Origin: an uncultured Acidobacteriota bacterium
Lineage (GTDB): Bacteria > Acidobacteriota > Blastocatellia > RBC074
Direction: 5' to 3'
Length of the DNA: 64,000 nt
Assembly (NCBI GenBank): GCA_902825875.1
Contig: CADECP010000005.1
Span: 50,168-114,167, forward strand
Within the stretch, counting starts at the first letter, position 1. Every line of letters starts with the position of its first letter. Under the pieces are notes generated by a model. That model was not told the origin of the DNA and did not search any database. It was given only the letters and a program-made list of their open reading frames with translations. The position numbers and the translations under genes are program-made. This document shows, one piece after another, positions 5,707-64,000 of the stretch.

Positions 5707-8700
5707 TTAGAAAATCAGCTTCAAGCCCAACTGCATCAAACGCGGATCGCGCGAACCGGTGATGCGTCCGAAAGCGTCGTTGTTATTCGTGCCGCCCGGC
5801 CCGGCACCGAACGAACCGTTCGGCGTGCCCAGGTTGACGTGATTCGGCGCGTTGAAGGCTTCGGCGCGGAATTGCAGCTTCAGCCGTTCGGTAATGGTGA
5901 AGTTCTTGAACACCGACAGGTCAATGATGATCGCGCCCGGATTGCGGAATTGGCTGATGGCGCGCGGCGTGTTGCCGAACACGTACAAAGCCGGATTCAC
6001 GAAGGCCGCCGGGTTGAACCATTGCACGCCGCGGTTTGGATTGGCATCGGTGAAACCGCTGGGCAATTCCAGACTGCCGATCCAGTCGGGACGATTTGCC
6101 AAACCGTTGTTCGCGCCGCGCACCGAAGTCGGCGTCCCGGCCACAATCGTCGTGATCGTGTTCAATTGCCAACCGCCAAGAACGTTGTTGGCCACTCCGT
6201 TTTTGAAATCGAAGCGTTTGCCCGCGCCGAAAGGCAGTTCGACCAAACCGCTGACCACCAAACGATGCGGCACGTTCGACGGGTCTTCCGAACGTTCGGC
6301 GCGACGATTGTACAAACCGTTCTGATAGCCGAAATCGTTGCCGCCTTCCGAACCTATGAAGTTCAATCCGTTGAAGATCGAATCGCTGATGAGTTTGGCG
6401 AAGGTGTATGAAGCCAGCACCGTGAAGCCTTTGGAAAAACGTTTTTCCGCCGACACCAGCATTGAGTGATAAATCGAATTGCCCGCGTGCGGCGCTTGGA
6501 CGGTGATGCCGCCGACATAAGGCAGCGGACGCAGCGCCTGAGCCTGTGTGATGGTCGCTCCGCCGAATGGGCCTGGGACTTTGCCCGCGAACGGATTCGG
6601 CACGTTGTTGGTCAGGCGTCCCGCCAAACCGAATTCACGAATCTTCGCCGGATCGGCTTGATTCAAATCGTAACTGCCGGACAGCAAGTGAGTGCCGTGA
6701 TTGGCCGAATAAGCGACTTCGACCAGAAAGCCTCCGCCGAGTTGTTGTTGCAAGGACAGATTCCATTGCTGCGACATCGGCGTGCGCGAAATTTGCTCTT
6801 TGAACGACGCGCTGGACGTGGCAAAAAAGTTCGGCCCTAAACGCGCGCCCAAGGGTTGATTCGGCGCGAAGGGAAAACCGTCCTTGAATTGAAATGCCGT
6901 CAGCAGGTTGTTGCCGTTCGGCGCAGGGTAAGCCGTCGTCGTTCCGGCAAAACCGTTCGTGCTTTCGTAATTGGCGTTCCAATAAGAAAACAGCGCCGAC
7001 ATAAAGATGCCGTAACCGCCGCGAACAACCGTTTGCTGATTGCCGCGCACATCCCACGAAAAACCCACGCGCGGCGCGAAGTCGTTTTTGTCGTCTTCGG
7101 AAAAGGTTCGCCCGTAATCAATGCAGGCGTATTGCGTCAAGCCTGGCAGACTGTTGGTCGGGTTCGTAGCGAAAGGATTGAACCTCGAAGTGCCGCAACG
7201 CCGTTCGTAAGGCTGTTGCTGGTAATCGTAACGCAATCCCAAACTCAGACTCAGGCGGCGGCGAATCTTCCATTCATCGTTGACGTAAAAACCGTAAGAC
7301 TTGCCGACTTCGGATTCGCCCAGATGCGTCGTCACGCTGGCGCTGCCGACCGCGCCGAGCAAAAACGTGGCGAATTGATTGCCGGTGTTGATGCGGTTGC
7401 CGGCGATGGGCGCGGCGTTGTCGGTCAAGGTTGTCGGGAATTGGAAATCGCCGGACGGCGAGCTTTTTTGCAGGTTGTTGGCCTGTGTCAGTCGCAACTC
7501 CGTGCCGAATTTGACTGTGTGATTGCCTTTCAACCAGGTCAGCGAATCAAACAATTGCCAGACCGAGCCGCCGCGTTTGCCCACAGTGCCGGTGTTGAAT
7601 CCGGGCAAACCGTTGTTCGGACGCGGCAACACATCCGGCGGAACGATTGACGGCAAACCCAATTGCGACGGCAGGTTCTGATCGGCGCTCGCCACCTTGA
7701 ATTCAAAAATCTGCCGCGCCACGCCGATGCGGAATTCGTGAATCAGGTTCGGCGTGAAGTTGTGAATGTCGCTCAGCACGACGTTGTGTCCGCGAAACGG
7801 GTCGGTGCGTTGGCGCACAATCGGATCGGGATAAAGATTCGCCGTGCCGTTGTCGGTGAACTGTTTGTAAAAGGTGTAGCGCGCCGTGAAGTTGTTCTTT
7901 TCAGAAAAGCGATGATCCACGCGCGAAGTGTGATTGGTCAGCGTGCGTTTGTTGCTGACCGCGCCGAAGAAATTGTTCAGATTGGTGAAGGCGTTGTCCG
8001 CCGTGCGGTTGGGCAGCGGATAAAACCGCAGGAAGTTTTTCGAGACCGCATCAATCCGATTGGCCGGAATGATGTTGCCGGGAAACGGGTCGCGCAGAAA
8101 GCCTTGCCCGTTCGGATTCGGGCGAGTGGTCGCCGGATCGTAAATGATGATCGGTTTGCCTGTGGCGTCGGCCAGCTTGGAAAAATCGCCGTTGCGGAAA
8201 GCTTCGGTCGGCAAGGTGTAAAAGCCCGAAGCGTTGGTTACAAACTGATAGCCTTCATAGTTGTAAAAGAAAAAGCTCTTGTCGCGTCCGTCGTAACCCA
8301 GCGGCCCGAAGACTTTGCCGGGCAAACGGATCGGCCCGCCAATCGAACCGCCGTATTGGTTGTAACGCAGCGGCTGTTTCGGACGCCGCGCGCGATTGTT
8401 GGCCCAAGAATTGGCGTCGAGCGAATTGTTGCGGAAAAACTCGTAAACCGTGCCGTGATAAGCGTTCGTGCCGGCTTTGGTCACCAGGTTCACCACGCCG
8501 CCGAGCGTGAAACCGTATTCCGCCGACATGGTGTTGGTCTGGACTTTGAATTCCTGCACCGAATCCACGTTCGGATTGATGTTTGCGTCCGGCAGATAAG
8601 CATTGACGCTGCTCAAACCGTCCACAACCAGATTGTTGGTGGCGAACGGCGAGCCGTTGATGCGAATGAACGAGACCTGCGTGCCGCGATCCGCAAAGCC

Positions 8701-55854: not shown

Positions 55855-56850
55855 TCAATTTTTGGCCGTCAGGTCAAATCGCATGCCATCTTTGGCAAGA
55901 ACAACTTTGCCTTTGAAAATGTCTGCGACTCCGCGCAGAAACATTTGTTCGGTGACAGGCGGATTCAGCGGAGGAACCATGTGCGTGAAAACCAGCGTTT
56001 CGACTTTGGCTTCGTTGGCGATTTCGGCGGCTTCGGTGGGGCTGGCGTGGTAAGTCAAAATGTCTCGAACCAGCTTAGCGCGGCGTTTATCGCCGGAACG
56101 TTCGGCGTTGGCGGCTGCCATGATCATCACGTCTTTGGCCAGCACATCGTGAATAAGCAAATCGGCTCCGGCAGCGTGCTTGGCCAGATTCGCGCTTTTC
56201 GCCGTGTCGCCGGAAATGACTACGCTGCGGCCTTTGTAATCCAGCCGATAACCGTAAGCCGGTTTAACCGGATCGTGTTCGACTTTGAAAGCCGTCACTT
56301 TCAAACCATTACGGTCGAAAACAACAGCGGCTTCGGCGTCGTTTTTCAACTTCACTTCACGGGCGACGGCTACGGCGGCGGCGCGCGGCAACATCGCTTC
56401 GGTGTGATGAGCGATGCGGTATTCCACATCCTGGCTGAACGCCTGAGCAAAACCGGCAACGATTTTTTCAACGCCCGGCGGGCCAAAAACTTCCAGCGGT
56501 TTCGCGCGACCGCCCAGCCATGTTTGCGTGACGGCTTCGCCCAAATCGCCGATGTGGTCGGAATGAAAATGCGTCAGCAAGACGGCACTGACGGCTGCGG
56601 TGGGGATGCGATTGACCGCGACTTGCCGCCAGGAACCGGGTCCGACATCAATCAAAACGACTTCTCCGCCAGCGACAACCGCCACACACGACGAAGCCCG
56701 CGTCGCATCTGCCAGCGGCGAACCCGTTCCGCACATCACCACGTGCAATTGTCCGTCGCTGAGCATCGCGATGTCTGCTTGTTGTTGCGCCGACACCGCA
56801 CCAACCATCATCAACAATCCCACAACCAATCCAACCAAAAGCTTTTTCAT
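55855..56850 (-). CDS. Secreted MBL-fold metallo-hydrolase
   Basis: Signal peptide. HxHxDH motif (LLTHFHSDHIGDL) and downstream His/Asp ligands. Confidence 0.8.
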   Translation of the reverse strand: MKKLLVGLVVGLLMMVGAVSAQQQADIAMLSDGQLHVVMCGTGSPLADATRASSCVAVVAGGEVVLIDVGPGSWRQVAVNRIPTAAVSAVLLTHFHSDHIGDLGEAVTQTWLGGRAKPLEVFGPPGVEKIVAGFAQAFSQDVEYRIAHHTEAMLPRAAAVAVAREVKLKNDAEAAVVFDRNGLKVTAFKVEHDPVKPAYGYRLDYKGRSVVISGDTAKSANLAKHAAGADLLIHDVLAKDVMIMAAANAERSGDKRRAKLVRDILTYHASPTEAAEIANEAKVETLVFTHMVPPLNPPVTEQMFLRGVADIFKGKVVLAKDGMRFDLTAKN

Positions 56851-57825: not shown

Positions 57826-57866
<41 letters not shown>

Positions 57867-57870
57867 CTTT

Positions 57871-59151
57871 ATGATTCAAACCGTTCGAGGAACCAGAGAC
57901 ATTTTGCCGAGCGATATGCCTTTGTGGCACCGCGTCGAAGCTGTCGCGCGCGAAGCTTTTCGCCGTTACGGCTTCCGTGAAATTCGCACGCCGATTTTTG
58001 AAAAGACCGAACTGTTCGCTCGCGGCGTCGGCGAAGCCACAGACATCGTTCACAAAGAAATGTACACCTTCACTGATCGCGCCCGTCAGGGCAGTGAAGG
58101 CGAATCGCTGACGTTGCGGCCTGAAAACACTGCTTCCGTCGTTCGAGCATACATTCAACACAAGATGTTTGCTGATAAATCTCCGGGCGAATTGACCAAG
58201 CTTTATTACATCGGCCCGATGTTTCGCCGCGAACGCCCGCAAGCCGGACGTTATCGCCAGTTTTATCAAATCGGCGTCGAAGTCATGGGTTCCAGCGACG
58301 ACGCAGCCATCGAAGCCGAAGTGATGGAAATGCTGGATTGGTTTCTGAAAGAACTGAAAATCACCAACACGACGTTGCTGATCAACTCCGTAGGCGAACC
58401 TGCAAGCCGCGCAGTGTATCTGGAAACACTGCGCGAAGCGATTCGCCCGAATCTGGACAAACTCTGCGGCGATTGCCACCATCGGTTTGAAACCAACGCG
58501 CTGCGCGTGTTCGATTGCAAGGTAGAAAGCTGCCAAACAGTCGTCGCCACTTTGCCGACGATTACCGATTCTTTGGACGAAGCTTCGCGCCAGCACTTTG
58601 AACAGTTCAAAGCTCACCTGGACGCGCGCGGCATCGCTTACACGGTCAATCCGCGAATGGTGCGAGGTTTGGATTATTACACTCGAACGGCGTTTGAAAT
58701 CGTTGGGCACGACGGACTTGGCGCGCAGAACACCTTGGTTGGCGGAGGCCGTTACGACGGATTGTCTGAAACCATCGGCGGCCCTCCGACCAAAGGTTTT
58801 GGCTTTGCGTTTGGGCTTGATCGAATGGTCATGGCTTTGTCGGAAGCTGAAGCCGAAAGCTTGCGCGCCGCTGACGCCCCAAGCATTTTCATAGTCTTTT
58901 TGGGCGAAGCGGCTCGTGCTCATTCTTTCGTCGTTGCCCAACAATTGCGCGCCGCTGGCGTTGCCGTGGCGATGGAATTTGAAGACCGGAAAATGAAAAA
59001 GGCTATGGCGGCTGCCGACAAATCTCGCGCCACTTACGCGCTGATCGTCGGCGACAACGAAGTCGCCACCGGCAAATACGGCTTGAAGAATTTGAAAACC
59101 GGCGAGCAGGAATCTCTGACGCTGGACGAAATCATTTTGAGATTAAATTGA
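57871..59151 (+). CDS. hisS: Histidine--tRNA ligase
   Basis: Start at MIQTVRGTRDILP. Class II motifs (FRRERPQAGRYRQF, GGGRYDGL), C-terminal anticodon-binding domain. Confidence 0.9.
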   Translation: MIQTVRGTRDILPSDMPLWHRVEAVAREAFRRYGFREIRTPIFEKTELFARGVGEATDIVHKEMYTFTDRARQGSEGESLTLRPENTASVVRAYIQHKMFADKSPGELTKLYYIGPMFRRERPQAGRYRQFYQIGVEVMGSSDDAAIEAEVMEMLDWFLKELKITNTTLLINSVGEPASRAVYLETLREAIRPNLDKLCGDCHHRFETNALRVFDCKVESCQTVVATLPTITDSLDEASRQHFEQFKAHLDARGIAYTVNPRMVRGLDYYTRTAFEIVGHDGLGAQNTLVGGGRYDGLSETIGGPPTKGFGFAFGLDRMVMALSEAEAESLRAADAPSIFIVFLGEAARAHSFVVAQQLRAAGVAVAMEFEDRKMKKAMAAADKSRATYALIVGDNEVATGKYGLKNLKTGEQESLTLDEIILRLN

Positions 59152-59240
59152 ACCCGGTACAGAACCGGGAGCGGTAGCGACTGGGTGATTTCGTGAAGCA
59201 CTCACCTAGTCGCTACTGCTCCCGGTTCCATACCAGTAAC
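59152..59240. repeat. REP-like palindromic element (gaaccgggagcggtagcgactgggtga / tcacctagtcgctactgctcccggttc) between hisS and aspS
   Basis: 27-nt arms with 2 mismatches, loop tttcgtgaagcac. Core also found inside the ADH gene (33961-33985). Confidence 0.6.
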
Positions 59241-59251
59241 AGGAAAGAACA

Positions 59252-61030
59252 ATGTTGGATCATCTTGGACAAACGAAACGCACTCATAATTGCGGCGAGC
59301 TTCGCCGGGAACACGCAGGTCAGACAGTCACGTTAATGGGCTGGGTGAATTCGCGGCGCGACCACGGGCCGTTACTGTTCGTGCATTTGCGCGACCGCGA
59401 AGGCATTACTCAAGTCGTCTTTGACGCCGAACGTTCCGCCGACGCGCACGCCAAAGCCAAAGACGCTCGCGGCGAATACGTGCTGGCCATCACAGGCAAA
59501 TGCGTGCTGCGCGAAGAAAGCAATTTCAACCCAGCGATGACGACCGGCGAAATAGAAATCATCGCCGACGAAATCAAAATCCTGAACGATTCGCGCACGC
59601 CGCCTTTTCAAATCGAACGCTGCGACGCTTCGGAAGACGTGCGCTTGAAATATCGCTACCTGGATTTGCGCCGCCCTGAAATGCAGAAGAATTTCAGGCT
59701 GCGCCATCAACTGGCTTTCACCACGCGCCGAGTGCTGGACGAACACGGCTTTTTTGAAATCGAAACGCCGATCCTGACCAAATCAACTCCCGAAGGCGCG
59801 CGCGATTATTTGGTTCCTTCGCGGACAATGCCCGGCAAGTTTTTCGCTCTGCCGCAATCGCCGCAGTTGTTCAAACAGTTGCTGATGATTTCCGGCTACG
59901 AGCGTTACTTCCAAATCGCGCGTTGTTTCCGCGACGAAGATTTGCGCGCAGACCGCCAGCCGGAATTCACGCAGATTGACATCGAAATGAGCTTCGTCCA
60001 GCCCGACGACGTGTTCAACGTCATCGAACCGTTGATCGTCGAATGCTTCAAAGTCGCGGGTTACGAAGCTCCGGCGCGTCCATTCCAGCGAATGAGTTAC
60101 AACGACGCGATGAACCGATTCGGCTCCGACAAACCGGATATACGTTTCGGCATGGAGTTCATTGATCTGACCGCGCAATTCGATGGCAGCGCATTTCCTG
60201 TCTTCGCCGACGCCATCAAAAAAGGCAGCGTAGTCAAGTCCATCGTCGTTCCCGGCGCAGCCACCTGGTCGCGCAAGCAGTACGACGACATCATCGAACA
60301 CGCCAAAAAGTTCGGCGCTGGCGGACTGGCTTACATTCAAGTGTTGGAAGGCGAAAACAAATCCGCGCTGACTAAAACGATGGGCGCTGACGGAGTTGCC
60401 AAAATCGTCGAAGCAGCCGGAGCCAAAGTCGGCGATTCGATTTTGATGATGTGCGCCAAATGGGAAAAGGCTTGCGACGTGTTGGGCGAAGTTCGTCTGG
60501 AAGTCGGTCGCCGCGAAAAACTCATCAACGAAGATGACAATCGGTTGCTGTGGGTGACTGAGTTCCCGATGTTTGAATACCACGAAGAAGACAAACGCTG
60601 GTACGCCAAACACCATCCGTTCACTTCGCCGCGCGACGAAGACGTTGAAAAGCTGAGCGGCGGCGATCTGGGTTCGGTCTACGCCAAAGCTTACGATCTG
60701 GTGCTGAACGGCAAAGAATTGGGCGGAGGCTCGGTTCGTATTCACCGTTCTGACGTACAAGCGACCGTGTTCAAAGCTTTGGGACTAAGCGACGAAGAAG
60801 CGCGCGAAAAATTCGGCTTCTTCCTGGACGCGCTCAGTTACGGAACCCCGCCGCACGGCGGCATCGCCTTGGGCTTGGATCGTTTGGTAATGCTGCTGGC
60901 CAAAGCGACTTCACTGCGCGATGTAATCGCCTTCCCCAAAGTCTCAACCGCTTCGGATATGATGACCGACAGCCCCAGCGAAGTCGCTCCGGCGCAATTG
61001 GCTGAGTTGAAAATCAAGACGTTGGTGTAA
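59252..61030 (+). CDS. aspS: Aspartate--tRNA ligase (bacterial type)
   Basis: OB-fold N-domain, class II motifs (FRDEDLRADRQPEFTQIDIE, GGGSVRIHR, GLDRLVMLL). 592 aa. Confidence 0.9.
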   Translation: MLDHLGQTKRTHNCGELRREHAGQTVTLMGWVNSRRDHGPLLFVHLRDREGITQVVFDAERSADAHAKAKDARGEYVLAITGKCVLREESNFNPAMTTGEIEIIADEIKILNDSRTPPFQIERCDASEDVRLKYRYLDLRRPEMQKNFRLRHQLAFTTRRVLDEHGFFEIETPILTKSTPEGARDYLVPSRTMPGKFFALPQSPQLFKQLLMISGYERYFQIARCFRDEDLRADRQPEFTQIDIEMSFVQPDDVFNVIEPLIVECFKVAGYEAPARPFQRMSYNDAMNRFGSDKPDIRFGMEFIDLTAQFDGSAFPVFADAIKKGSVVKSIVVPGAATWSRKQYDDIIEHAKKFGAGGLAYIQVLEGENKSALTKTMGADGVAKIVEAAGAKVGDSILMMCAKWEKACDVLGEVRLEVGRREKLINEDDNRLLWVTEFPMFEYHEEDKRWYAKHHPFTSPRDEDVEKLSGGDLGSVYAKAYDLVLNGKELGGGSVRIHRSDVQATVFKALGLSDEEAREKFGFFLDALSYGTPPHGGIALGLDRLVMLLAKATSLRDVIAFPKVSTASDMMTDSPSEVAPAQLAELKIKTLV

Positions 61031-61051
61031 ATCAGTGGAAGGGAGATGATT

Positions 61052-61309
61052 ATGGCAATTTCAAAGTTGATGCTTCTTGAATCGCGCATTGTGATTCTGG
61101 AAGCAGAGGTAGCACAACTCAAACAACAAATCTCCGTCACGCCGAACAATGAAACGCCTTGGTGGGAACAGCACTGGGGAATCTTTAATGACTATCCTGA
61201 TTACGAAAAGGTCGTGGCATTAGGCCGGCAGTACCGCGAATCGCTACGACCGAAACCAACGAAGAACAAAACCAGTAAGAACACACAAAAGAAACTCAGC
61301 GAGGATTAA
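61052..61309 (+). CDS. Small hypothetical coiled-coil protein (GC-poor), first gene of the aspS-purF insertion
   Basis: 85 aa. Heptad-like LLESRIVILEAEVAQLKQQI, basic C-tail. GGGAG RBS. Ends 5 nt before the ATPase gene. Confidence 0.45.
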   Translation: MAISKLMLLESRIVILEAEVAQLKQQISVTPNNETPWWEQHWGIFNDYPDYEKVVALGRQYRESLRPKPTKNKTSKNTQKKLSED

Positions 61310-61314
61310 TTGTT

Positions 61315-63030
61315 ATGCTCACCAATATCCACATCAAAAACTTCAAGCGATTTGAAGATGTCAGCTTTGAACTTGGGGAAAGAGTTGTGCTGATTGGGCC
61401 GAACAATTCCGGTAAAACAACAGCATTGCAGGCACTTGCTTTGTGGGAAATTGGGCTGCGGCGTTGGAATGAAAAGCGTGGCGGCAAATCACCCACTGAA
61501 AAAAGAAGTGGCGTCCCTATAAATCGCAATGATTTGATTGCCATCCCATTGCCGGGTGCAAATTTGCTCTGGCGAGACTTGCACGTCAGAAATGTCGAGT
61601 ACGTAGATAGCAAACCGAAAACCCAAAACATTCGCATTGATATTTGTGTTGACGGCATAACTGACGGACAAGCTTGGTCGTGCGGTTTGGAATTCGATTA
61701 TGCCAATGAAGAATCCTTTTATTGTCGAACGTTGCGTTTGAACGACGACAAACAGCCGCAACGAATGGAAGTCCCTCTTGCCGCTAGCGCGATGCGTGTT
61801 GCGTTTCTGCCTCCGATGTCCGGCTTGGCCGCAATTGAACCAAAGTGGGAACCCGGACGAATCAACGTGCTGCTTGGTGAAGGACAAACGGCACAGGTCT
61901 TACGAAATTTGTGTTATCAGATTTATGAACAGCACAAAGCGAACGGTCACTGGGAAAAGCTGCAAAGGGATATTGAGAAGCTGTTTGGTGTGCAATTACT
62001 TCCGCCGCAATACATCAGCGAGCGCGGCGAAATAACGATGGCTTACAAAGAACCGAATGGGGTGAATCTTGATCTGAGTTCCGCCGGGAGAGGTTTGCAA
62101 CAGACGCTGTTATTGCTGGCCTATCTTTATGCCAATCCTGGCACTGTCATATTACTTGACGAACCGGATGCACATCTTGAGGTGCTGCGCCAACGCCAAA
62201 TCTATCAACTCCTAACAAACATTGCTCAACAGCAAGGCTCTCAAATCATTGCTGCCAGTCATTCCGAGGTTATCCTTAATGAAGCCGCAGATCGTGACAT
62301 CGTCATCGCCTTCCTTGGCCAGCCACACCGCATAGATGATCGCGGCAGCCAAGTCCGAAAATCCTTGAAGGAAATCGGATTTGACCAATACTATCAGGCG
62401 GAACAGACTGGCTGGGTCCTATACCTGGAGGGATCAACGGATTTAGCTGTCTTGCAAGCTTTTGCCGATACACTTGGCCATTCGGCAGCGAATTTTTTAG
62501 AGCGCCCATTTGTTCATTATGTGGGAAATCAACCACCAAAAGCCGAAGAGCACTTTTATGCTTTACGTGAGGCTTACCCTGACCTTATTGGAGTGGCGAT
62601 CTTTGATCGTCTAAAGCGCGAGCCACAATCTACTGAGACGCTCAAAGAGACAATGTGGAGCCGGCGTGAGATCGAAAATTATCTATGCACTGAAACAGTT
62701 TTGCTCTCGTACGCGGAGAGAAGCATAAACATGAATTTGTTCGCTGAGATTTCTAAACAGTTAATGGTTGATGCAATAAAAGAAATCTCGCAAGCCCTCC
62801 TTACTTTGGGCATTGATCCTTGGTCTCACGATGTTAAAGCTTCAGATGAGTTTCTTGACAGACTTTTTGCCTTGTATTTCAAGAAGCTAAAGCTCCCGAA
62901 TCTTTTGACCAAAACGGATTACCACGTATTGGCGCAATTTCTGACGAAAGACCAAATTGATACTGAGGTGATTCAAAAACTCGATTTGATTGTTGAAACC
63001 GCTTCAAAAGCCAAGCCTCGTGTAAATTAA
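61315..63030 (+). CDS. ABC-type ATPase with C-terminal TOPRIM/DUF4435-like domain (OLD-family / Gabija GajA / PARIS AriA-AriB-fusion-like); candidate anti-phage defence nuclease
   Basis: N-terminal IHIKNFKRF plus Walker A GPNNSGKTT, Walker B LLDEPDAHLE, H-loop-like ASHS. C-terminal WVLYLEGSTD...GVAIFDRL resembles TOPRIM E/DxD. GC-poor. GAGGA RBS. Confidence 0.75.
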   Translation: MLTNIHIKNFKRFEDVSFELGERVVLIGPNNSGKTTALQALALWEIGLRRWNEKRGGKSPTEKRSGVPINRNDLIAIPLPGANLLWRDLHVRNVEYVDSKPKTQNIRIDICVDGITDGQAWSCGLEFDYANEESFYCRTLRLNDDKQPQRMEVPLAASAMRVAFLPPMSGLAAIEPKWEPGRINVLLGEGQTAQVLRNLCYQIYEQHKANGHWEKLQRDIEKLFGVQLLPPQYISERGEITMAYKEPNGVNLDLSSAGRGLQQTLLLLAYLYANPGTVILLDEPDAHLEVLRQRQIYQLLTNIAQQQGSQIIAASHSEVILNEAADRDIVIAFLGQPHRIDDRGSQVRKSLKEIGFDQYYQAEQTGWVLYLEGSTDLAVLQAFADTLGHSAANFLERPFVHYVGNQPPKAEEHFYALREAYPDLIGVAIFDRLKREPQSTETLKETMWSRREIENYLCTETVLLSYAERSINMNLFAEISKQLMVDAIKEISQALLTLGIDPWSHDVKASDEFLDRLFALYFKKLKLPNLLTKTDYHVLAQFLTKDQIDTEVIQKLDLIVETASKAKPRVN

Positions 63031-63163
63031 AGAGAAGGGGCACTGCCACAATTGAAGAAAATAGCTACTCCTAAAGATAAAACTCTCCTGCCTTTCGCCA
63101 TTTAGCCGGGTTGTTTATACTGTGGCTTACATTCATCGGGTACACCATTCACAACCAAAAACT

Positions 63164-64000
63164 ATGTTCGACAAATTACGCGAAGAGTGCGGAGTCTTCG
63201 GGATTTACGGCCACGAAGAATCTGTGCGGCTCACTTATTTAGGCTTGTACGCGCTTCAGCATCGCGGGCAGGAATCGGCAGGGATTGTTTCGTCCGATGG
63301 CTCGCGGCTGTATGCCGAACGGGGCATGGGCTACGTCGGCGATATTTTCCAGGAAGAAAATCTGGGGCGAATGACCGGGCGTTCAGCCATCGGCCACGTG
63401 CGATATTCCACAGCCGGCAAAGTCAGTTTGAACGAAGCGCAGCCGTTTTCGGTCAAATGCAGCTTCGGCCAGATTGCGCTTTGCCACAATGGAAATTTGC
63501 CTGATGCCACCGAAGCGCGGCTGCAATTGGAAAACGACGGCGCGATTTTTTCTTCGACTTCCGACACTGAAGTTGTATTGCATCGCATCGCGCGTTCGCG
63601 CGCGGGCGACGTGGTCGAAGCCATTGCCGAAGCATTGCGAAACGATGAAGGCGCTTTTTCGATGCTGTTTGTCACGCCGGACAAATTGATCGCCGTGCGC
63701 GACCCGCGAGGTTTTCGTCCGTTGTGCATGGGCGAATTGGAAGGCGCAACAGTCTTCGCTTCTGAAACCTGCGCTTTTGATTTGATCGGCGCGAAATACG
63801 TGCGCGATGTCGAACCGGGCGAAATCGTCGTCGTCGAAGCCAACGGCATTCGGTCGCTGAAACCATTCGCCGCGCGCCCGACTTCGCATTGCGTTTTCGA
63901 ACACGTCTATTTTTCGCGGCCTGATTCGCTGGTGTTTGGCCGCAGCGTCAACAAAAGCCGTCACTTGTTTGGCCGCCATCTGGCGCGCGAACATCCGGCG
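63164..64000 (+). CDS. purF: Amidophosphoribosyltransferase, N-terminal part (gene runs off window end)
   Basis: Own translation: MFDKLREECGVFGIYGHEE...YALQHRGQESAGIV (Ntn glutaminase domain with propeptide and catalytic Cys). No stop inside the window. Confidence 0.85.
   Translation, partial: MFDKLREECGVFGIYGHEESVRLTYLGLYALQHRGQESAGIVSSDGSRLYAERGMGYVGDIFQEENLGRMTGRSAIGHVRYSTAGKVSLNEAQPFSVKCSFGQIALCHNGNLPDATEARLQLENDGAIFSSTSDTEVVLHRIARSRAGDVVEAIAEALRNDEGAFSMLFVTPDKLIAVRDPRGFRPLCMGELEGATVFASETCAFDLIGAKYVRDVEPGEIVVVEANGIRSLKPFAARPTSHCVFEHVYFSRPDSLVFGRSVNKSRHLFGRHLAREHPA

Follow-up and report, generated by a model that had tools for sequence, protein, structure and literature searches.

In PARIS, the ATPase AriA senses a trigger and releases or activates the TOPRIM protein AriB, which cuts tRNA-Lys (PMC11464382; PMC12409363). 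The helical-bundle insert of AriA builds a hexameric scaffold and trigger pores, and AriB binds metal through E26, D30, D88, E90 and E122, of which E26 is essential in that the E26A substitution abolishes defence (PMC11464382). Class 1 OLD proteins are described as stand-alone genes, and whether proteins of this type defend cells alone is an open question in the field (PMC10568477). Among them, the single-polypeptide P2 Old cuts off the anticodon arm of tRNA (PMC12445682), and a report on Escherichia coli YbjD describes its TOPRIM domain as dispensable for the phenotypes and its ATPase as essential (PMC13261556). Here we analysed a stretch of 64,000 nucleotides (hereafter the window) from an uncultured Acidobacteriota bacterium (GCA_902825875.1, contig CADECP010000005.1), in which a small gene and a gene encoding a 571-aa ATPase-TOPRIM protein lie between aspS and purF. 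A preliminary description of this DNA had regarded the two genes as an inserted pair and a candidate defence system with an unusual small partner. Our results indicate that the locus is probably a slot of the VapBC type, in which a PIN toxin gene was replaced by a horizontally acquired, mobile ATPase-TOPRIM gene that normally stands alone.

The small gene and the slot downstream of aspS

The small gene has 55 homologs encoding proteins of 70-97 aa. The gene directly 3' of it was recorded in 78 metagenome loci plus L081-L086, and belonged to one PIN family in 66 of about 83 informative loci. It was the ATPase gene in three (L081-L083, all encoding P0122, the closest relative of the window protein) and neither in 14, about half of which are extra tandem copies of the small gene upstream of a small-PIN pair; the contig was too short to tell in seven cases. 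The PIN assignment passes the Pfam threshold (28-38 bits against a cutoff of 23.6), the PIN gene encodes about 141 aa, and the stop of the small gene abuts or overlaps the PIN start in the 66 loci. In GCA_038211695.1 (L084), an Acidobacteriota genome syntenic with the window, the genes run TetR-ECH-hisS-aspS-small-PIN, a single nucleotide separating the small gene from the PIN gene (141 aa), and the same pair is present in an unrelated locus rich in toxin-antitoxin (TA) genes (L086). One or two extra small-gene copies precede the pair in L088 (1216/1556/1689), L089 (2637/2995), L095 (22/423), L100 (2661/3037), L106 (2746/2992) and L137 (15/247).

An antitoxin gene directly upstream of a PIN gene, the arrangement by which VapBC modules are recognised, is thus found in 66 homologous loci and not in the window, where six PIN proteins, used as tblastn queries on the tail and on all 64 kb, revealed no PIN remnant. 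The small protein matches no Pfam or NCBIfam family. Its family combines a zipper-like N-terminal helix with an invariant C-terminal G.F..P...GR.YRESLRP motif, and differs in this respect from VapBC antitoxins with a recognisable DNA-binding fold, as no AbrB, ribbon-helix-helix, Phd or helix-turn-helix fold could be discerned. The family resembles VapBC in being a short gene upstream of a PIN gene of about 141 aa, often in TA-rich regions such as L086. For the coiled coil ascribed to the protein earlier, the support consists of compositional matches to GCN4-type zippers. The small gene most likely encodes an as yet unnamed antitoxin-type partner of the PIN toxin family and is an orphan in the window.

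From the other side, the ATPase gene occurs in other genomes without such a neighbour. A hidden Markov model (HMM) of the small protein had no match in any of 80 other ATPase loci, examined with flanks of up to 8 kb and all open reading frames (ORFs) of at least 35 aa. Only the lineage of the window (L081-L083) shows the pairing, and the idea that the small gene is a dedicated new partner of the ATPase did not survive this comparison of 66 PIN-linked and three ATPase-linked homologs.

Synteny with relatives suggests how the pairing arose. In 11 loci the small gene is preceded by aspS, which is 73-90 % identical to the window's aspS, or more so over partial matches. In seven of seven relatives compared, similarity to the window stops where the small gene ends (about 61036-61305); their DNA beyond this point does not match the window, and purF is not within 3-5 kb. 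The small-PIN pair appears to be ancestral beside aspS, and similarity ends at the small-gene 3' end, which argues that only the ATPase gene is a newcomer. The two-gene insertion between aspS and purF proposed earlier was therefore not confirmed, since related Acidobacteriota share the aspS-small junction and do not have purF downstream of it. The low GC content that had drawn attention to this 2.1-kb segment is real: it is 0.41-0.51 over 61000-63250 and 0.53-0.58 on either side, with 0.464 for the ATPase gene, 0.451 for the small gene and 0.538 for the upstream flank.

The ancestral order would have been aspS-small-PIN, the pair occupying a variable slot 3' of aspS in a clade of Acidobacteriota. 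In the lineage of the window and L081, the PIN gene and the DNA downstream of it would have been replaced, a complete ATPase gene being placed at the former toxin start. The ATPase would act alone and would not need the small protein, the gene for which may now supply upstream context, namely co-transcription and a ribosome-binding site in its 3' end. The two genes described earlier, an ORF of 85 or 87 codons and a 571-codon ORF 5 nt further on, are both present as reported (Table 1). An 85-aa product is the likelier, as the ATG at 61052 has a GGGAG Shine-Dalgarno sequence 8 nt upstream and the homologs all begin with MA.SK. The Shine-Dalgarno sequence of the ATPase gene, GAGGA, is embedded in the final codons of the small gene. 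The ATPase keeps its native MLTNI... N-terminus. L081 is 88 % identical to the window in DNA and has the same TAA + 5 nt + ATG layout, with AAGGA as Shine-Dalgarno sequence.

The small protein diverges erratically relative to aspS, also among PIN-linked loci; for example, L088 and L092 are 94 % identical in aspS and 52 % in the small protein. The flank 3' of aspS is therefore a variable slot in which modules turn over. Faster evolution of the small protein on the branch that carries the ATPase was considered and rejected, the small-to-aspS divergence ratio being 2.8-5.1 on this branch and 1.1-9.9 among PIN-linked loci with L089 left out. Signatures of a mobile cassette were sought at the locus, and neither flanking direct repeats, convincing inverted repeats, an Rfam match nor a promoter-like site was found; two terminator-like matches were no more than in a shuffled control. 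The 133-nt spacer before purF likewise contains no recognisable terminator, repeat or gene remnant. Between the window (59252-63030) and L081, synonymous divergence (dS) is uneven within 4 kb, at 0.30 for the ATPase N-terminus, 0.52 for aspS and 0.8 for the small gene, which could come from codon constraint, from gene conversion at a later stage or from the ATPase gene having been exchanged more recently.

Just beyond the window end, in contig L187 (100 % identical to window 57840-64000, with the GATase and Pribosyltran domains of purF annotated), a 94-aa gene and then a PIN-domain gene directly follow purF (6801-7470), so that purF has a TA-type or mobile module on either side. This pair was considered as the displaced module and rejected, as neither protein had an HMM match to the small or PIN family studied here.

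Domain architecture and catalytic residues of the 571-aa protein

The 571-aa protein is a single polypeptide that joins an N-terminal ABC ATPase, whose Walker A, Walker B and H-loop are all intact, to a C-terminal TOPRIM fold (Table 1). The motifs quoted in the preliminary description (Walker A, Walker B, ASHS, VLYLEGSTD and GVAIFDRL) all occur where it had placed them. Pfam recognises AAA_21 (4e-23), AAA_15 (5e-20) and SMC_N, and the ATPase head also accounts for the PADLOC matches to NsnB (4e-27), AriA, mad3, AriAB, GajA (2e-15), Old and PtuA. No NCBIfam model came near its cutoff, and no PADLOC model spans the protein in full. An AlphaFold model of the full protein, built with 25 homologs as input, had a predicted local distance difference test score (pLDDT) of 79. 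In this model, the insert in the ATPase head consists of a beta-rich part (strands 94-139) and helices 190-224, with low-confidence loops. Residues 79-96 (61549-61602) and 165-191 (61807-61887) are insert loops that are nearly invariant across phyla at a pLDDT below 50, as exemplified by LPPMSGLAA.EPKWEPGR..VL.GEGQTAQVLRN. Both loops may form an oligomer interface or a surface that binds the trigger.

Table 1 Coordinates of the locus and of the motifs in the 571-aa protein (positions in the window; conservation counts refer to the 56 proteins compared in the text).
Feature	Coordinates	Strand	Remarks
Small gene	61052-61309	+	85 aa; alternative ATG 61046 gives 87 aa; from ORF list
Spacer from small-gene stop to ATPase ATG	61310-61314	+	5 nt; layout TAA + 5 nt + ATG
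ATPase-TOPRIM gene	61315-63030	+	571 aa, single polypeptide, OLD/PARIS-like
ABC-ATPase head	61315-62334	+	Residues 1-340, with inserted domain
Walker A GPNNSGKT (K34)	61396-61419	+	K34 kept in 56/56
Insert in ATPase head	61447-62064	+	Residues ~45-250; in the model beta-rich plus two helices
Walker B and D-loop VILLDEPDAHLE (D282, E283)	62146-62181	+	D282 kept in 54/56, E283 in 55/56
H-loop AASHS (H316)	62251-62265	+	H316 kept in 55/56
TOPRIM domain and helical extension	62410-63027	+	Residues 366-571; OLD/AriB type by predicted fold
WVLYLEGSTD	62413-62442	+	Motif read in sequence
TOPRIM motif 1, E372-G-S-T-D376	62428-62442	+	AriB E26/D30 by spacing; EGVSD of L177 by hhalign
IGVAIFDRL	62587-62613	+	Motif read in sequence
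Degenerate DxD, D431-R-L433	62605-62613	+	First Asp kept; aligned to DRD of L177
W448-x3-E452-I-E454-N-Y456	62656-62682	+	Aligned to RHIENY of L177; within PADLOC AriB match
aspS	59252-61030		Upstream flank; Pfam tRNA-synt_2, 2e-123
Spacer from ATPase gene to purF	63031-63163	n/a	133 nt, AT-rich
purF	start 63164		Downstream flank; begins MFDKLREECGVFGIYGHEE

In profile searches, the C-terminal 249 residues had no Pfam match up to E = 10, DUF4435 (PF14491) and Toprim_Old (PF20469) included; AAA_15 and AAA_21 were found for the protein as a whole, and the C-terminal models of PARIS and OLD were not. The C-terminal half matched PADLOC models marginally (AriB, E 0.007; AriAB, E 0.01), and a profile of the domain found nothing in the PDB up to E 10, AriB included. 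Therefore, only fold comparison ties the C-terminal domain to the solved structures of AriB and OLD. Residues 340-571 modelled alone gave a pLDDT of 89 and a predicted template modelling score of 0.85. The best structural match of this model was AriB, followed in the fold comparison by class 2 OLD (8.5), PH0156 (8.4), class 1 OLD (7.0), retron Eco8 OLD (6.8) and GajA (6.4), and Foldseek ranked four class 2 OLD C-terminal structures first (probability 0.98-0.99) with weak E-values. The structure prediction proposed in the preliminary description thus returned a confident TOPRIM fold of AriB/OLD-like type. Judged by this model, the TOPRIM assignment is correct at the fold level, and the earlier claim of a TOPRIM/DUF4435 domain holds for the fold and fails for the Pfam families.

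We aligned 55 complete cluster representatives (37-61 % identical to the window protein) with the window protein itself, 56 sequences in all. E372 is kept in 54, D376 in 56 and D431 in 52 of them, and in the third motif E452, E454 and N455 are each kept in 53 and Y456 in 54. The six commonest residues at position 433 are Leu (22), Ile (10), Val (4), Thr (4), Gln (3) and Asp (3); Leu, Ile, Val, Thr or Gln occupies it in 43 of the 56 proteins. Of the canonical set of Glu plus DxD, the window protein has the Glu (E372) and lacks the second Asp. The DRL read earlier in place of DxD is accordingly a trait of the whole family. Five acidic residues of the TOPRIM site are kept (E372, D376, D431, E452 and E454) and the canonical second Asp is gone. 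Based on sequence conservation, the E452/E454 stretch probably contributes extra invariant acidic residues that complete the metal site. When the AriB set is mapped by spacing and by the alignment to L177, E372, D376 and D431 fit and E452/E454 are candidates for E122, while the position of AriB E90 is a hydrophobic residue, Leu in the window protein.

The IMG/VR viral contig L177 (2383-4237) encodes a remote full-length relative with 25 % identity, the same insert motifs and canonical IVEGVSD, IRDRDDD and HIENY sequences. In the profile alignment, E372/D376 correspond to EGVSD, D431 to the first and Leu433 to the second Asp of DRD, and REIENY to RHIENY. The C-terminal domain of this relative has a sub-threshold match to Pfam DUF3226 (22.6 bits against a cutoff of 27). 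Besides the fold, this remote relative is what connects the window protein to the families of the DUF4435 and Toprim_Old models. L177 may represent the ancestral state of the ATPase-TOPRIM family.

Spread and genomic surroundings of the ATPase-TOPRIM family

A word-indexed search returned 8000 matches, the top 120 of which all share 65-77 % identity across their entire length (about 575 aa). In a scan of one genome per species, the family was present in at least 535 species genomes, from nearly all bacterial phyla, among them Proteobacteria, Planctomycetota, Chloroflexota, Verrucomicrobiota, Nitrospinota, Bacteroidota and Acidobacteriota. An exhaustive profile search with the C-terminal domain gave 992 clusters at 50 % identity, 235 of them at E <= 1e-30, and all complete proteins among the 150 clusters listed had the same architecture with lengths of 546-632 aa. 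Acidobacteriota copies are 59-65 % identical to the window protein and those of Proteobacteria, Nitrospinae and Planctomycetota 64-68 %. The copies from its own phylum are therefore no closer than those of other phyla, which argues for horizontal spread. Moreover, the GC content of the ATPase gene is on average 0.05 lower than that of the host flanks, with 50 of 77 loci below -0.03 and none above +0.03 (r = 0.82). An ATPase 66 % identical to the window's was also found in a metagenome-assembled genome (MAG) of Candidatus Bathyarchaeota (L006, 8001-9725), either an inter-domain transfer or a binning error.

In other genomes the ATPase-TOPRIM gene is a solo gene in unrelated contexts, as class 1 OLD genes are described to be. 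No small upstream ORF is shared among the 80 other ATPase loci; the 38 listed are mutually unrelated and mostly resemble out-of-frame artefacts. BLAST clustering of the neighbours gave no cluster in more than eight loci, and hence no recurrent neighbour. Two Pfam censuses, of 64 close same-strand neighbours and of 124 further genes within two positions, showed a heterogeneous set that includes DNA ligase, Ile-tRNA synthetase, chorismate synthase, sulfatases and response regulators. Mobile or defence-type neighbours were few (N6_N4_Mtase 5, ResIII 5+3, DUF1156 2 and DDE transposases 3), and a tRNA gene lies within 500 bp in 3 of 60 ATPase loci. A type I restriction-modification (R-M) or Rlo-like context had been suspected where neighbours of 850-1190 aa suggested HsdR, and was rejected when Pfam identified them as ligA, ileS and other housekeeping genes; an R-M context as a rule was rejected as well, with just 5 N6_N4_Mtase and 5+3 ResIII domains among the 188 neighbours. 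In a Syntrophus MAG (L016, 7688-7942), an 84-aa ORF that looks RelE/ParE-like by eye ends 58 nt upstream of the ATPase gene, possibly a second instance in which the ATPase has TA-type neighbours.

Two further features lie upstream in the region of the window. A perfect tandem repeat of the heptamer CTACTGT (5.7 copies, 57826-57865) occupies the intergenic space that separates hisS from the enoyl-CoA hydratase gene (- strand). In L081, the gene that lies upstream of enoyl-CoA hydratase (691-1698) has precomputed Pfam matches to Anti-Pycsar_Apyc1 and Lactamase_B, and its ortholog in the window ends near 56849 on the - strand. The product is a hydrolase of the metallo-beta-lactamase fold, a type that some phages use against cyclic-nucleotide signalling; here it is chromosomal.

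Function, competing explanations and significance

By analogy with class 1 OLD and PARIS, the 571-aa protein most likely links the binding and hydrolysis of ATP by its head to a metal-dependent nuclease. In this view, it would be the head, including the conserved insert, that recognises a trigger and controls the C-terminal TOPRIM nuclease, which would then cut tRNA or DNA and stop the growth of the infected cell. As AriB is the closest structure, RNA, and specifically tRNA, is our first guess for the substrate, made with low confidence.

Several observations weigh against parts of this picture. In 53 of the 56 family members DxD lacks its second Asp, so nuclease activity is not assured. Conservation is unusually high for a defence gene, with a mean column identity of 75 % among 25 sequences from many phyla and a ratio of nonsynonymous to synonymous substitution rates (dN/dS) of 0.03. 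No member was found among 72,556 plasmids and 50,697 phage genomes, true members occur on 2 of 2.9 million viral contigs, and defence genes are a minority among the neighbours of the ATPase gene; the suggested role in defence draws on homology and on a genomic habit like that of class 1 OLD. With regard to the replacement, the distribution of the two pairings is what points to PIN as the ancestral partner. In addition, the small gene is intact and under purifying selection between the window and L081 (dN/dS 0.18, dS 0.8), and the 5-nt junction is kept in two diverged lineages that carry the ATPase, which is not obviously the behaviour of a useless remnant.

Some of these points would also be explained if the 571-aa protein were not a nuclease-based defence protein at all, its degenerate TOPRIM serving as a binding or regulatory module in another role such as nucleic-acid surveillance or repair. 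The family-wide loss of the second Asp, the very strong purifying selection on a highly conserved protein, the mostly housekeeping neighbours and the absence from phage and plasmid collections fit such a role, as does the dispensable TOPRIM domain beside an essential ATPase described for YbjD (PMC13261556). However, E372, D376, D431, E452, E454, N455 and Y456 are nearly invariant in family members down to 37 % identity, as expected for a live metal site. Moreover, a distribution that is patchy and at odds with taxonomy, together with the AT-rich bias, speaks for horizontal spread rather than for a core function, and the closest structures are all defence nucleases. We therefore regard a role other than nuclease-based defence as unlikely.

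The persistence of the small gene could alternatively mean that it was co-opted, such that a protein of the VapB type now neutralises, regulates or senses for the ATPase-nuclease, amounting to an exchange of toxins across superfamilies. Consistent with this, the tight TAA + 5 nt + ATG junction, with the ribosome-binding site of the ATPase inside the small gene, is kept in the window and in L081, the small gene has been under purifying selection after the swap, and the two ATPase-linked copies retain all invariant residues of the small-protein family. In each of the ten contigs shown with an identical small protein, the neighbouring gene lies at the same 5-nt spacing, and it is the ATPase gene where it can be annotated. 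Nevertheless, the ATPase does without this partner in 80 of 80 other genomes, and a single lineage has the pairing. No change in the small protein is peculiar to the ATPase lineage, as the divergence of this protein lies within the PIN-linked range and the window's DYPDY..KVVALGR variant also occurs in the PIN-linked L088. The small protein could have been retained through coupling at the promoter or in translation, or on account of PIN paralogs at other sites in the genome, and the different PIN pair just past purF shows that the region is rich in TA genes, which makes trans-acting explanations possible. Co-option thus appears unlikely. The same low probability applies to its most specific form, in which a retained VapB-type antitoxin gates a swapped-in OLD/PARIS-like nuclease, by binding or by control of expression, in a family of one-Asp TOPRIM proteins that currently escapes detection. 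If true, this would be a natural exchange of toxins between unrelated effector superfamilies and the first small-protein regulator of a class-1-OLD-like enzyme.

It is very improbable that the 571-aa protein is a plain member of the described fused ("merged") PARIS clades: fused ariAB genes are documented (PMC11464382), AriB is its best structural match and PADLOC AriAB matches it at E 7e-20 over a stretch, residues 277-460, that runs from the ATPase into the TOPRIM domain, but the score is 69 bits and the best matched stretch covers 193 of the 694 model positions, DUF4435 does not match, the AriB model alone reaches E 0.007, the AriAB model exceeds the protein by about 120 residues, the ATPase insert of the protein is beta-rich in the AlphaFold model whereas that of AriA is a helical bundle (PMC11464382), and the AriB E90 equivalent is hydrophobic.

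More generally, the window protein shares with PARIS (AriA + AriB, or fused AriAB) the AAA_15/AAA_21 ABC ATPase and an AriB-like effector fold. It differs in the ATPase insert as modelled, in the apparent loss of the E90 equivalent and in matching DUF4435 not at all and the PADLOC AriB and AriAB models only marginally; moreover, its family is chromosomal in uncultured environmental bacteria rather than carried on P4/P2-type elements. With class 1 OLD proteins (P2 Old, Thermus scotoductus OLD, V. cholerae OLD and E. coli YbjD) it shares the architecture and the stand-alone habit. In contrast to these, it lacks a Pfam Toprim_Old match, its best stretch to PADLOC Old is residues 2-42, the Walker A region only, its modelled TOPRIM is structurally closer to AriB than to OLD, and in its family DxD is reduced to Dx[LIV] and an ExE-N-Y motif is added. 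An ATPase head of the OLD-ABC type is also found in Gabija GajA, retron Eco8 OLD (class 2/3 OLD) and Menshen NsnB, and the TOPRIM folds of GajA and Eco8 OLD are among the structural matches given above. However, the partners on which these systems depend (UvrD-like GajB, reverse transcriptase, noncoding RNA, NsnA and NsnC) do not recur in the neighbour censuses. The ATPase-TOPRIM family is therefore an uncharacterised, widespread OLD/PARIS-like single-gene family, which we count neither as class 1 OLD nor as PARIS because it escapes the Toprim_Old and DUF4435 models and lacks the canonical DxD.

In conclusion, the small gene and the ATPase gene are almost certainly not a new two-gene system, and the best explanation for their look of dedicated partners is that they came together by accident when a gene was replaced in a TA slot. 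A mobile solo gene that lands in the toxin position of such a slot yields a misleading "operon" resembling a new system, which is a caution for the discovery of defence systems by guilt by association. The locus itself reveals no new kind of system; the conservation, the spread and the one-Asp TOPRIM of the ATPase family are mildly surprising. As neither the Pfam TOPRIM models nor dedicated PADLOC models capture this family, defence censuses of environmental genomes probably miss it. Its one-Asp TOPRIM with five other acidic residues is a natural experiment on two-metal TOPRIM catalysis, and the family, being very conserved and easily synthesised, would be a good test case for stand-alone defence by OLD-type proteins.

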